In this document: one piece after another, positions 8,275-55,906 of the stretch
How the letters are laid out: each line of letters starts with the position of its first letter
How positions within the stretch are numbered: the first letter of the stretch is position 1
Source: a phage
Sequence record: PZ445440.1
Reading direction: 5' to 3' (one strand)
DNA: 64,000 nucleotides
The notes under the pieces: model-generated
Databases searched by the model: none
What the model was told of the DNA's origin: nothing
The model's input: the letters and a program-made list of their open reading frames with translations, nothing else
Position numbers and translations under genes: made by a program

Positions 8275-9831
8275 ATGACTACTATCAAAACTAAAGCTCA
8301 GCTCGTAGACAAATGGAAAGAACTGCTGGAAGGTGAAGGCCTGCCGGAAATCGCTAATAGCAAGCAGGCTATTATCGCTAAAATCTTCGAAAACCAGGAA
8401 AAAGATTTCGAAGTATCCCCTGAATATAAAGACGAGAAAATCGCTCAGGCATTTGGTTCTTTCTTGACCGAAGCTGAAATTGGTGGTGACCACGGTTATA
8501 ATGCTCAGAACATCGCAGCAGGTCAAACCTCTGGTGCAGTAACCCAGATTGGGCCAGCAGTTATGGGTATGGTTCGTCGTGCTATTCCTAATCTGATCGC
8601 TTTTGATATTTGTGGTGTTCAGCCTATGAACAGCCCAACCGGTCAGGTATTTGCTCTCCGTGCAGTATATGGTAAAGACCCTATCGCTGCTGGCGCTAAA
8701 GAAGCTTTCCATCCGATGTATGCCCCAGACGCGATGTTCTCTGGTCAGGGTGCTGCTAAGAAATTCCCAGCTCTGGCTGCTGACACTACTACTGTTGTAG
8801 GTGATATCTATACTCACTTCTTCCAGGAAACTGGTACTGTATATCTGCAAGCTTCTGCCGTCGTAACACTTGATTCTAGTGCTAAATTAGATGCAGAAGT
8901 TAAGAAACAAATGGAAGCTGGTGCACTGGTAGAAATCGCTGAAGGTATGGCTACTTCTATCGCTGAACTCCAGGAAGGTTTCAACGGTTCTACCGATAAC
9001 CCATGGAATGAAATGGGCTTCCGTATCGACAAACAAGTTATTGAAGCTAAATCTCGTCAGCTGAAAGCAGCTTACTCCATCGAATTGGCACAAGACCTCC
9101 GTGCAGTACACGGTATGGATGCTGATGCTGAACTGAGCGGTATTCTGGCTACAGAAATTATGCTAGAAATCAACCGTGAAGTTGTTGATTGGATTAACTA
9201 CTCTGCACAGGTTGGTAAATCTGGTATGACCCTGACTCCGGGTTCTAAAGCTGGTGTATTTGACTTCCAGGACCCGATTGATATCCGTGGTGCTCGTTGG
9301 GCCGGTGAAAGCTTTAAATCTCTGTTGTTCCAGATTGATAAAGAAGCAGTTGAAATTGCTCGTCAAACCGGTCGTGGTGAAGGTAACTTCATTATCGCTT
9401 CCCGTAACGTAGTTAACGTACTGGCTTCAGTTGATACTGGTATTTCTTACGCTGCACAGGGTCTGGCTTCTGGTTTTAATACCGACACTACTAAGTCCGT
9501 ATTTGCCGGTGTACTCGGTGGTAAATACCGCGTATACATCGACCAGTATGCTAAACAGGATTACTTCACCGTTGGTTACAAAGGCGCTAACGAAATGGAT
9601 GCAGGTATTTACTATGCTCCTTACGTTGCACTCACCCCACTGCGTGGTTCCGATCCTAAGAACTTCCAGCCGGTAATGGGCTTTAAAACTCGTTACGGTA
9701 TCGGTGTTAACCCGTTTGCTGAAAGTTCCCTGCAGGCTCCAGGTGCTCGCATCCAGTCCGGTATGCCGTCTATCCTGAACAGCCTTGGTAAGAATGCTTA
9801 CTTCCGCCGTGTATATGTAAAAGGCATCTAA
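8275..9831 (+). CDS. 23: Major capsid protein gp23
   Basis: 518 aa; T4 gp23-like; followed by strong UUCG hairpin terminator. Confidence 0.95.
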   Translation: MTTIKTKAQLVDKWKELLEGEGLPEIANSKQAIIAKIFENQEKDFEVSPEYKDEKIAQAFGSFLTEAEIGGDHGYNAQNIAAGQTSGAVTQIGPAVMGMVRRAIPNLIAFDICGVQPMNSPTGQVFALRAVYGKDPIAAGAKEAFHPMYAPDAMFSGQGAAKKFPALAADTTTVVGDIYTHFFQETGTVYLQASAVVTLDSSAKLDAEVKKQMEAGALVEIAEGMATSIAELQEGFNGSTDNPWNEMGFRIDKQVIEAKSRQLKAAYSIELAQDLRAVHGMDADAELSGILATEIMLEINREVVDWINYSAQVGKSGMTLTPGSKAGVFDFQDPIDIRGARWAGESFKSLLFQIDKEAVEIARQTGRGEGNFIIASRNVVNVLASVDTGISYAAQGLASGFNTDTTKSVFAGVLGGKYRVYIDQYAKQDYFTVGYKGANEMDAGIYYAPYVALTPLRGSDPKNFQPVMGFKTRYGIGVNPFAESSLQAPGARIQSGMPSILNSLGKNAYFRRVYVKGI

Positions 9832-9855
9832 TCTTAATTGATTAAATCTTATTTT

Positions 9856-9873
9856 GGGAGACTTCGGTCTCCC
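9856..9873 (+). terminator. Stem-loop GGGAGACUUCGGUCUCCC followed by U-run (gene 23 terminator)
   Basis: perfect 7-bp GC-rich stem with UUCG tetraloop, then ATTTTTGG. Confidence 0.7.
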
Positions 9874-9883
9874 ATTTTTGGTT

Positions 9884-10153
9884 TTATTTCTGTGCAATTT
9901 CGATGTAAGTTTTCAAAATATTTTGCCAATTAGGCATACCTTCTTGGACATATGCCGGAGAACCGTCTTTGTTTTTGAATGATGCAAGTTTATCAGTGGC
10001 CCAATAACCTTTAGCTCGAGCTTCAGAATCAACTTTCATCCATACTTTGTTGAAGGCATTACCATTAACTTTTGCACCATATTTTTCTACTAACTTAACT
10101 GCTTCAGCTTCCAGAACTTTTAAAGTATCTCGTAAGAAACGTGCTTTAGTCAT
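9884..10153 (-). CDS. Hypothetical early protein, 89 aa (at the locus between 23 and 24)
   Basis: ORF on opposite strand to flanking late genes; T4-type early promoter at 10184-10213. Confidence 0.6.
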   Translation of the reverse strand: MTKARFLRDTLKVLEAEAVKLVEKYGAKVNGNAFNKVWMKVDSEARAKGYWATDKLASFKNKDGSPAYVQEGMPNWQNILKTYIEIAQK

Positions 10154-10183
10154 TTTGTTTACTCCTCTGTAGTTGATAAGTCT

Positions 10184-10213
10184 ATAGTATCACATACCAA
10201 ATACGTTGTAAAC
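10184..10213 (-). promoter_or_regulatory. T4-type early (sigma70) promoter: GTTTAC -35, 17-18 nt spacer, TGnTACTAT -10
   Basis: reverse complement reads GTTTACAACGTATTTGGTATGTGATACTAT. Confidence 0.6.
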
Positions 10214-10219
10214 AATCTT

Positions 10220-10227
10220 TATAAATA
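10220..10227 (+). promoter_or_regulatory. Late promoter TATAAATA for gene 24
   Basis: exact TATAAATA about 28 nt upstream of the gene 24 start. Confidence 0.7.
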
Positions 10228-10254: not shown

Positions 10255-11538
10255 ATGAGTAAAATCCAAAAATTATTGCGTGAATCTACAACGTCTACTA
10301 GCAACTCAATTGGTCGCCCAAATCTCGTTGCTTTGACTCGCGCTACGACTAAATTAATATATTCTGACATTGTAGCAACACAAAGAACTAATCAACCTGT
10401 TGCTGCTTTTTATGGTATCAAATATCTTAACCCAGATAACGAATTCACATTTAAAACCGGTGCTACTTATGCAGGCGAAGTTGGATATGTAGACCGAGAA
10501 AAAATTACTGAGCTCACAGAAGAATCAAAAGTCACACTAAATAAAGGTGATTTTTTCAAATATAATAATATCGTCTATAAAGTGTTAGAAGATACACCAT
10601 TTGCAGATATTCAAGAAAGTGATCTAGAATTAGCTCTTCAGATTGCAGTCGTTCATTTAAAGGTACGGTTATTTTCAGATGCAGCGGTAACAAGCAAATT
10701 TGAAAGCTCTGATAGCGAAATTTCTGATGCAAGATTCCAGATTAATAAATGGCAAACTTCAGTCAAATCTCGTAAACTTAAAACTGGCCTCACGGTCGAA
10801 TTAGCGCAAGATTTGGAAGCGAATGGATTTGATGCCCCTAACTTCTTAGAAGATTTGCTTGCTACTGAAATGGCAGATGAAATTAATAAAGATATTCTTC
10901 AGTCTTTAATTACTGTATCGAAACGTTATAAAGTTACTGGAATTACTGACACCGGATTTATTGACTTGAGTTATGCATCAGCTCCAGAAGCAGGTCGTTC
11001 ATTATATCGAATGGTGTGTGAAATGGTATCACACATTCAAAAAGAGACAACTTATACTGCAACGTTTTGTGTAGCCTCAGCTCGTGCAGCTGCTATTCTT
11101 GCTGCTTCTGGTTGGTTAAAACATAAGCCAGAAGATGACAAGTATCTTTCACAAAATGCTTATGGATTCTTGGCAAATGGATTACCTCTTTACTGCGATA
11201 CCAACAGTCCGTTAGATTATGTTATTGTGGGTGTTGTAGAAAATATCGGCGAAAAAGAAATTGTAGGGTCCATCTTTTATGCTCCATACACTGAAGGAGT
11301 AGATTTAGATGACCCGGAACATGTTGGTGCTTTTAAAGTTGTAGTTGATCCAGAAAGCTTGCAACCGTCTATTGGATTATTGGTTAGATATGCTTTATCG
11401 GCAAATCCTTACACGGTAGCAAAAGATGAAAAAGAAGCGAGAGTAATTGATGGCGGGGACATGGATAAAATGGCAGGACGTTCAGACTTGTCTGTTTTAC
11501 TCGGTGTTAAATTGCCTAAAATTATTATAGATGAATAA
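10255..11538 (+). CDS. 24: Capsid vertex protein gp24
   Basis: 427 aa, same length as T4 gp24; gp23 paralog. Confidence 0.9.
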   Translation: MSKIQKLLRESTTSTSNSIGRPNLVALTRATTKLIYSDIVATQRTNQPVAAFYGIKYLNPDNEFTFKTGATYAGEVGYVDREKITELTEESKVTLNKGDFFKYNNIVYKVLEDTPFADIQESDLELALQIAVVHLKVRLFSDAAVTSKFESSDSEISDARFQINKWQTSVKSRKLKTGLTVELAQDLEANGFDAPNFLEDLLATEMADEINKDILQSLITVSKRYKVTGITDTGFIDLSYASAPEAGRSLYRMVCEMVSHIQKETTYTATFCVASARAAAILAASGWLKHKPEDDKYLSQNAYGFLANGLPLYCDTNSPLDYVIVGVVENIGEKEIVGSIFYAPYTEGVDLDDPEHVGAFKVVVDPESLQPSIGLLVRYALSANPYTVAKDEKEARVIDGGDMDKMAGRSDLSVLLGVKLPKIIIDE

Positions 11539-12688: not shown

Positions 12689-12940
12689 TTAGAACTTGAT
12701 TTCTATCCAATGACCATCACGCTGGTCGTGATTAATTTTATACTGAAAGCCATTATCACGTAACCACTGCCCGACTTGCTCAGTGATAGTTAAATCATTC
12801 TTTGATGGATAGTACGTGAATTGTGTCTGGCCTTTATCAGCGGCTTTCTCTGCCATCACAGAGAAGTTAGTAATAAAATCACTCAACAAATTAGCTTTAG
12901 TGGCCAGAGCCCTTTCTCTTAATTCCTGTGCAAAACTCAT
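12689..12940 (-). CDS. Hypothetical protein, 83 aa
   Basis: ORF in conserved position between hoc and rnlB; start overlaps stop of upstream ORF. Confidence 0.5.
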   Translation of the reverse strand: MSFAQELRERALATKANLLSDFITNFSVMAEKAADKGQTQFTYYPSKNDLTITEQVGQWLRDNGFQYKINHDQRDGHWIEIKF

Positions 12941-13143
12941 TTCTTCACCTTTTTGTTAATAAAACGTTTACGGTATACGACTTTTTCTTTTGCTTTAAAC
13001 TTTGACCGAGCTGTCTCGGCTTTAGTCCATAGTAATCCAACTTCTTTAGGTTGTAAACCAATTTTTTGAGCAATTTCTACGAATGAAAATCCCGCCTCAT
13101 GTAATGTATAAACTTCAACTTCAGCTCTCATAATCAATCCCAT
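12937..13143 (-). CDS. Hypothetical small protein, 68 aa, possible HTH, basic C-terminus
   Basis: segment FSFVEIAQKIGLQPKEV resembles a helix-turn-helix. Confidence 0.45.
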   Translation of the reverse strand: MGLIMRAEVEVYTLHEAGFSFVEIAQKIGLQPKEVGLLWTKAETARSKFKAKEKVVYRKRFINKKVKK

Positions 13144-25520: not shown

Positions 25521-25550
25521 ATAGTATCACACATCCATGTGTTTGTAAAC
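25521..25550 (-). promoter_or_regulatory. T4-type early promoter
   Basis: reverse complement GTTTACAAACACATGGATGTGTGATACTAT. Confidence 0.55.
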
Positions 25551-32545: not shown

Positions 32546-32580
32546 ATCTTTTTAAACTTTTTCTGCCCTAAACGCACAAA

Positions 32581-32598
32581 AGGGAGACCGAAGTCTCC
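32581..32598 (-). terminator. Hairpin GGGAGACUUCGGUCUCCC (RNA from - strand), identical to the gene 23 terminator
   Basis: exact 18-mer repeated at 9856 and 47584. Confidence 0.6.
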
Positions 32599-32604
32599 CT
32601 AAAA

Positions 32605-32784
32605 TTATGCAACAACCTTTCCAAAACGAGAAGCATCATCTCGAAGAACTGCACGTGCTCTGCGCATGATCTTCTCAATGGTTTGATTAATACGAGAGTT
32701 CGACCCACGCTTGTATCCAGCGCGTTTAGAGGTACCATCAACTTTCTTTTCAACTGCTTTCTTTGCTTTAGCTTGTTTTGCCAT
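32605..32784 (-). CDS. Hypothetical small basic protein, 59 aa
   Basis: hand-translated MAKQAKAKKAVEKKVDGTSKRAGYKRGSNSRINQTIEKIMRRARAVLRDDASRFGKVVA; not in ORF track; no clear SD, so tentative. Confidence 0.35.
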   Translation of the reverse strand: MAKQAKAKKAVEKKVDGTSKRAGYKRGSNSRINQTIEKIMRRARAVLRDDASRFGKVVA

Positions 32785-47583: not shown

Positions 47584-47601
47584 ACTCAAAAGGGAGACCG
47601 A
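47584..47601 (-). terminator. Hairpin GGGAGACUUCGGUCUCCC downstream of gene 32 (third copy of the 18-mer)
   Basis: identical to 9856-9873 and 32581-32598. Confidence 0.65.
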
Positions 47602-47615
47602 AGTCTCCCAATTTA

Positions 47616-55888: not shown

Positions 55889-55906
55889 AGGAGACTTCGG
55901 TCTCCT
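55889..55906 (+). terminator. Hairpin AGGAGACUUCGGUCUCCU after gene 35
   Basis: UUCG-loop stem followed by TTTT; late promoter at 55914-55921 follows. Confidence 0.6.

Follow-up and report, generated by a model that had tools for sequence, protein, structure and literature searches.

A small antisense accessory gene with an early-type promoter occupies the slot between capsid genes 23 and 24 of a Mosigvirus phage

One close described counterpart of the locus considered here is segD of phage T4, which encodes a 223-aa GIY-YIG homing endonuclease and lies between capsid genes 23 and 24, antisense to both. A 2010 review could identify no segD-specific promoter in T4 (PMC2988022), and homing endonucleases are known to mobilize neighboring genes (PMC10448857; PMC13096335). 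Most phage accessory genes, in turn, are thought to work against the defenses of the host or against other viruses (bioRxiv 10.1101/2023.04.06.535777).

Here we analyze the corresponding interval in a 64,000-nucleotide stretch of phage DNA (sequence record PZ445440.1; hereafter the window), which derives from a Mosigvirus, an RB69-like T-even phage. Over 701 nt around the slot between the two capsid genes, no base separates the window from Escherichia phage vB_EcoM_G53 or from phage ChristianSchoenbein (100% identity), and the same 701 nt are found at an identity of at least 99% in about 100 further Mosigvirus records. A first-pass annotation, made from the letters alone, had placed an antisense 89-aa ORF between genes 23 and 24, in the slot that holds segD in T4; the ORF is indeed there, at 9884–10153 on the minus strand, and segD of T4 occupies the same place in the same antisense orientation. 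The slot and its flanks comprise the following features:

8275..9831, plus strand: gene 23, which encodes the major capsid protein and bounds the slot on its left (ORF list; annotation in the 100%-identical G53)
9855..9884, plus strand: intrinsic terminator of gene 23, a TGGGAGAC-TTCG-GTCTCCCA hairpin at 9855–9874 followed by TTTTTGGTTT (terminator scan, RNA folds)
9884..10153, minus strand: the 89-aa ORF, a member of PHROG 6003, stop codon included (ORF list; profile match)
10162..10167, minus strand: Shine–Dalgarno sequence GAGGAG, 8 nt 5' of the ATG (read from the sequence)
10184..10213, minus strand: T-even early-type sigma-70 promoter, GTTTACA-17-TGaTACTAT (promoter scan, family of sites in the window, conservation)
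10220..10227, plus strand: late promoter TATAAATA for gene 24 (read from the sequence)
10255..11538, plus strand: gene 24, which encodes the capsid vertex protein and bounds the slot on its right (ORF list; annotation in G53)

The locus resembles that of T4 segD in its position, in its orientation and in having a homologous promoter-like element upstream and a homologous hairpin downstream. It differs in its cargo, which at 89 aa bears no sequence or domain relation to the endonuclease. The first-pass claim that the ORF is unrelated to segD and has no recognizable domain thus stands: neither Pfam nor NCBIfam returned a GIY-YIG match in it, and no other domain family was recognized. In phage F2, a separate 219-aa segD ORF lies downstream of an ORF of the 89-aa type, which makes the two distinct items of cargo.

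The capsid proteins that flank the slot share 94% (gp23) and 95% (gp24) amino acid identity with those of T4, and gp24 is 100% identical to that of F2. The next gene after gene 24 is rnlB, on the minus strand. Gene 24 is single-copy in the window, T4 and F2; two paralogs stand in tandem in five other loci (L002, L003, L004, L012 and L014), which belong to Dhakavirus, Gaprivervirus and two metagenomic relatives. Farther to the right, a match to the early-type promoter (GTTTACAACC...GGATTACTAT; 13029–13058, minus strand) falls within a 68-aa ORF (12937–13143) and upstream of an 83-aa ORF (12689–12940), and these two ORFs hold the place of T4 genes 24.3 and 24.2.

The 89-aa ORF is a genuine gene under purifying selection as a protein. 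Its ATG at 10153–10151 is the earliest start codon past the upstream stop, and the AGGAG of its ribosome site is kept in Dhakavirus loci. Among unsaturated pairs, dN/dS (Nei–Gojobori) ranges from 0.03 to 0.15. A tblastn search located the ORF in 240 phage records; in 238 of these, a single unbroken alignment took in 80% of the protein or more, and about 120 Mosigvirus records hold it at an identity of at least 95%. Because of this purifying selection and of conservation in about 240 phage records, we consider the ORF to lie beyond chance. Conservation had been set beforehand as the test on which the first-pass proposal could fail, and the dN/dS values speak for the gene. Its G+C content (36%) is in line with that of the genome (38%), and a paralog search of the window found none. 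The additional places reported by BLAST proved to be look-alike terminator hairpins and promoters; such extra hits in related genomes are explained by near-identical copies of the GGGAGAC-TTCG-GTCTCCC terminator hairpin, which recur in the window at 32570–32605, 47588–47611 and 55890–55905.

The ORF itself is not new: the genomes that match the window already annotate it as "hypothetical protein", annotations exist in more than 200 genomes, and it belongs to PHROG 6003, a family listed as of unknown function. The match spans the whole profile (E = 2.1e-45; residues 1–89 on profile positions 1–90 of 90). The names gathered in this family are RB69ORF188c/189c, VR7ORF190c, EpJS10_0170 and "hypothetical protein", from Mosigvirus, Dhakavirus and Gaprivervirus, and the ORF of the window is a typical member, lying, as the others named do, between genes 23 and 24 and on the corresponding strand. 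In Dhakavirus (WG01, VR5) and Gaprivervirus (VR20), this place is taken, on that strand too, by homologs 30–38% identical to it. Each homolog tested falls in PHROG 6003, and the remote ones match only phrog_6003, at E ≤ 1e-14. The family is small; an exhaustive HMMER search with its profile against 1.84 billion representative proteins returned nine matches. Two of the nine, the giant repeat proteins P0023 and P0024, were judged spurious because their repeats are repetitive and surface-protein-like, unlike the helical ORF product, and their E-values are sums over 6–11 weak stretches.

Searches of NCBIfam and PADLOC returned nothing for the window protein, and Pfam gave only a sub-threshold match to DUF4859 (17.9 bits against a gathering threshold of 22.6 bits; E = 0.003), which we attribute to chance, as seven other family members do not show it. 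A sequence-profile search of the PDB yielded nothing meaningful, and we found no likeness in sequence or fold to any characterized anti-defense inhibitor. The 90-aa member P0006, on contig L012, is labeled "NADPH-dependent curcumin reductase CurA" in one source, a clear misannotation. In the literature searched, the locus names are not mentioned, searches on the names of BASEL phages gave no gene-level match, and no RB69 or Mosigvirus transcriptome was found.

The first-pass annotation had also assigned the ORF its own early promoter, and this assignment is upheld by the membership of GTTTACA-17-TGaTACTAT in a strand-biased family of early-type sites within the window. In the element, a −35 GTTTACA (10213–10207) is joined through a spacer of 17 nt to an extended −10 TGaTACTAT (10192–10184); it scores 9 of 12 matches plus the TG, with a predicted transcript start near 10177. 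A generic sigma-70 scan of the 700-nt stretch found two sites against 2.0 expected from shuffles and is weak proof by itself, because this number is no higher than in the shuffled sequences. The pattern GTTTAC-N16-18-TAnnnT, by comparison, occurs in the window at 12 minus-strand sites, the slot's included, and at one plus-strand site, and the copies at 25550, 36128 and 39658 have GTTTACAA...TGTGATACTAT in common with the site at 10213. T-even early promoters are defined by a −35 GTTTAC(A), a spacer of 17 ± 1 nt and a −10 TAnnAT preceded by TG, all on the strand of the early genes, and the slot promoter has this sequence. Judged by sequence pattern, it belongs to the phage's own early family, of T4 type and with the expected strand bias.

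Back to back with this promoter, 6 bp from its −35 element, stands the late promoter TATAAATA of gene 24. The block TATTTATA is invariant in the alignment of every slot type, the empty ones included, and the combined early and late promoter block aligns in Mosigvirus, Dhakavirus and Gaprivervirus. In T4, the sequence TTTACA-17-TGaTATTAT is present upstream of segD (L007, NC_000866, 5234–5326, minus strand). This element is a degenerate, promoter-like copy of the slot's early promoter, homologous by position. The homology between the slot's early promoter and the region upstream of T4 segD appears to be undescribed in the literature searched.

At the other end of the slot, the gene 23 hairpin folds with z of about −4.5 against shuffles on each strand (−13.7 kcal/mol and z = −4.55 on the ORF strand), and it is aligned and conserved in Mosigvirus, Dhakavirus, Gaprivervirus and T4. 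The description of the ORF as converging on the gene 23 terminator is accurate as to position, with 9 nt separating its stop codon from the hairpin, but does not extend to termination of its own transcript by a canonical signal. The terminator scan made a call on the plus strand only; on the ORF strand, the hairpin is followed by AAAAUAAG without a U tract, and the combination of G+C-rich hairpin and U tract that defines an intrinsic terminator was not found there. Because AAAAUAAG stands in place of the U tract, the early transcript has no canonical intrinsic terminator in this hairpin. In VR20, a T run does follow the hairpin on the ORF strand. An Rfam search of the interval gave only sub-threshold chance matches on the hairpin.

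Comparison of the 23–24 interval across T-even phages, a check suggested alongside the first-pass annotation, revealed a conserved frame with variable cargo, which takes five states:

State 1, empty except for terminator and late promoter (81–83 nt): T2 and Klebsiella phage PMBT63
State 2, promoter-only relic: dhaeg, dhabil and CLB_P2
State 3, ORF only: the window
State 4, ORF followed on the same strand, 3 nt away, by a 219-aa GIY-YIG segD: F2 and relatives
State 5, segD only: T4 and T6

In the relic state, dhaeg, dhabil and CLB_P2 have lost 294 bp between two TATA microhomologies, from a point just past the −10 element as far as the stop codon, in comparison with JS10, whose flanking DNA is 99.5% identical. 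In dhaeg (L009, 433–555), the deletion has brought the early promoter up against the terminator hairpin. In F2 (L018, NC_054913, 2501–3430), an ORF allele of Dhakavirus type and segD stand in tandem behind one early promoter. The F2 slot is chimeric: its allele is of Dhakavirus type, and the genome's gp24 and gp23 are 100% and 97% identical to those of the window; it possibly arose by homing and co-conversion. In Mosigvirus, Dhakavirus and Gaprivervirus, the ORF is a stable resident of the slot and not a sporadic insertion. It is also not simply an alternative to segD, because both coexist in one slot.

The history of the ORF departs from that of the neighboring capsid gene. Between the window and F2, gp23 is 97% identical and the ORF product 30%; between F2 and WG01, the values are 84% for gp23 and 94% for the ORF. 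The same incongruence is seen between L012 and WG01 (gp23 92%, ORF 27%) and, with gp23 at 82% and the ORF at 61%, between the window and L012. Aligned as DNA, the window and F2 share 95% identity as far as the ribosome site and 92% once the stop codon is reached; the break coincides with the ORF. The incongruence and the loss of identity at the ORF ends point to two allele classes, about 30% identical, that are swapped as cassettes, with the conserved promoter and terminator as arms. In the literature searched, neither this cassette arrangement nor the trading of ORF alleles from one backbone to another appears to have been described.

Outside the T-even phages, remote members of PHROG 6003 have three settings: contigs of myovirus size (up to about 141 kb), where they lie in long same-strand arrays of small ORFs of unknown function; ABPH49, a Vequintavirinae record; and a siphovirus with a distant relationship to Serratia phages, where the member comes after the tail-tip gene. 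The non-T-even neighborhoods examined include no head module. The first-pass view of the interval as a hot spot for accessory cargo thus gains from the five states, from the incongruence between allele and capsid, and from the homologs in unrelated phages.

The ORF is also dispensable, as deletion and frameshift variants occur among sequenced phage isolates. In the RB69 reference (L011, NC_004928, 5292–5532), a +1 and a −1 frameshift leave the gene in two pieces, RB69ORF188c and RB69ORF189c. Of the two, the +1 insertion lies inside a small substitution patch and the −1 deletion about 150 nt further on; the split may be a real pseudogene of the laboratory strain or may reflect old sequencing errors. 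Phage mogra carries a truncated copy, and 310Ecol104PP a shortened copy of 64 aa. The ORF therefore shows what marks an accessory gene, namely variable presence and identity between core genes, horizontal exchange and non-essentiality, and we hold it very probable, close to certain, that it is a real, selected and exchangeable accessory gene with an early-type promoter.

Structure prediction, the other check suggested at the outset, gave confident and concordant AlphaFold2 models for both allele types (pLDDT of 89.6 for the Mosigvirus type and 93.5 for the Dhakavirus type), but no fold match: Foldseek returned zero PDB entries at E ≤ 0.001. The predicted topology comprises a helix (residues 3–25), a loop with an invariant NGNAxN motif, a second helix (31–48), a β-hairpin (56–70) and a third helix (76–88). 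The fold is thus modeled as a three-helix bundle with a β-hairpin excursion and an invariant Asn-Gly-Asn loop. A Foldseek search of BFVD gave one match, an 88-aa viral protein with 31% identity to the query that is probably a member of PHROG 6003, and the best matches to winged-helix proteins reached only E ~0.5 and TM ~0.25. The ORF product has a mass of 10.1 kDa and a pI of 9.6; all 14 members examined have a pI between 8.0 and 9.9 despite identities of about 30%. What stays invariant in the family is Asn, Gly and Gln, not Arg or Lys. We found neither a membrane segment nor a nuclease motif in the product. Its small size and few catalytic-type residues make an enzyme improbable.

We favor the reading that the slot holds an early accessory cassette whose product is a host- or competitor-directed early binder with a host-dependent benefit, and we give this reading a probability of roughly one-half. 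It is favored because the traits of the ORF fit the published description of accessory genes (bioRxiv 10.1101/2023.04.06.535777): like the genes of Silas et al. described there, the ORF is small, fast-diverging, non-essential, variably present and exchanged. It differs from them in that it was not found in the text supplements of that screen or of its follow-up, from which its peptide motifs are absent. The cassette consists of the early promoter, the ribosome site and the 89-aa ORF, and ends at the gene 23 hairpin. Host RNA polymerase would read the promoter, and the ORF is predicted to be expressed immediately early, in the first minutes of infection. Its product may then bind a host (or competing-phage) macromolecule stoichiometrically, a mode suggested by its small size and its lack of catalytic motifs. 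The likeliest effect would be that a host defense is neutralized, or a host function retuned, in a way that matters on some hosts only. Such a host-dependent benefit would explain how the gene can be dispensable in the laboratory and yet intact in nature. In the 23–24 slot of T-even phages of E. coli, the frame of promoter and terminator is conserved and the cargo recombines within its ends; the cargo can also be lost or joined by segD.

A role specifically in anti-defense or host takeover is a more tentative suggestion, somewhat short of an even chance. We draw it by analogy, because of the class of gene only; no tool result ties the protein to a target, and Pfam, NCBIfam, PADLOC, Foldseek and the PDB profile search gave no homology or fold match that hints at a target or an activity. 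The small inhibitors Ocr, Arn, Acb2, Tad1 and Tad2, which have solved structures, fall in a similar size class, and early expression is predicted for the ORF as well; the likeness is one of functional analogy only. The basic pI argues against a protein of the DNA-mimic anti-restriction type, and it fits nucleic-acid binding equally well. More doubtful still is the wider proposal that PHROG 6003 as a whole is an uncharacterized family of anti-defense proteins or defense triggers with an orphan fold, which would be traded as a promoter-to-terminator cassette among T-even, rV5-like and siphoviral enterobacterial phages and, in some lineages, co-mobilized with SegD.

The main rival to the early binder takes up this second possibility: the product could be a small basic nucleic-acid binder that, early on, coats or bends the DNA or RNA of host or phage, a modulator of the nucleoid or of transcription resembling T4 MotB or Ndd and not an inhibitor of a defense protein. 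A positive charge that persists in 14 of 14 members (pI 8.0–9.9) across sequences only about 30% identical would suit such a protein, as would the helical fold with its β-hairpin and the early-type promoter. We nevertheless consider it unlikely, since no helix-turn-helix, winged-helix or other DNA-binding family was detected, the winged-helix comparisons in Foldseek stay at E ~0.5 and TM ~0.25, and the residues held invariant are Asn, Gly and Gln, with neither Arg nor Lys among them. A protein that serves capsid assembly has only the position between genes 23 and 24 to recommend it, and we reject it. The ORF runs on the opposite strand from an early, not a late, promoter, and its siphovirus and rV5-like homologs lie outside head modules. 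T2 lacks the ORF, although the capsid proteins of the window are 94–95% identical to those of its genus-mate T4, and natural deletion and frameshift variants have been isolated as phages.

Other rivals make the protein incidental or direct it at competing phages. The promoter could be the selected unit, with read-through antisense RNA silencing gene 23 early; the minus-strand hairpin is followed by AAAAUAAG and no U run, and the promoter is kept where the ORF has been deleted (dhaeg) and upstream of T4 segD. Purifying selection on the protein sequence (dN/dS 0.03–0.15) contradicts this, however, and T2-type and Klebsiella T-even phages do without such a promoter. Moreover, the T run after the VR20 hairpin on the ORF strand implies that read-through is not conserved, and no capsid gene lies downstream of the homologs in other phages; we judge the antisense reading very improbable. 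The same selection, which is strong, weighs against a functionless passenger of a homing-endonuclease landing pad, spread with segD by co-conversion and kept because deletions are rare. Such a passenger would accord with the shared transcription unit of ORF and segD in F2-type phages, with the allele-swap breakpoints at the ORF ends and with the ability of homing endonucleases to mobilize adjacent genes (PMC10448857; PMC13096335). Yet the ORF is intact in nearly all of the ~120 Mosigvirus records, where the slot holds no segD, and the family also occurs in phages in which segD is no neighbor, so we regard a mere passenger as improbable. Very improbable, too, is a role in competition between phages, whether by exclusion of co-infecting relatives or by modulation of SegD cleavage or marker exclusion at the locus. 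The setting, a homing-endonuclease site with two allele classes that have diverged deeply and substitute for one another across backbones, would favor it; the product shows no membrane segment and no nuclease motif, most carriers have the ORF without segD, and T4 has segD without the ORF.

If the product of the early cassette does neutralize a host defense, the counter-defense repertoire of phages would gain both a fold and a target that are new to it. The carriers of this cassette in Mosigvirus and Dhakavirus are much used in therapy cocktails and in defense-system screens, and nature supplies near-isogenic comparisons, as JS10 has the gene and dhaeg and CLB_P2 lack it. The putative degenerate early promoter before segD suggests an answer to the missing segD promoter of T4 (PMC2988022). 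Whatever the function of its cargo, the 23–24 slot illustrates modular exchange cleanly, with a conserved promoter and a conserved terminator serving as the recombination arms around cargo that can be swapped.
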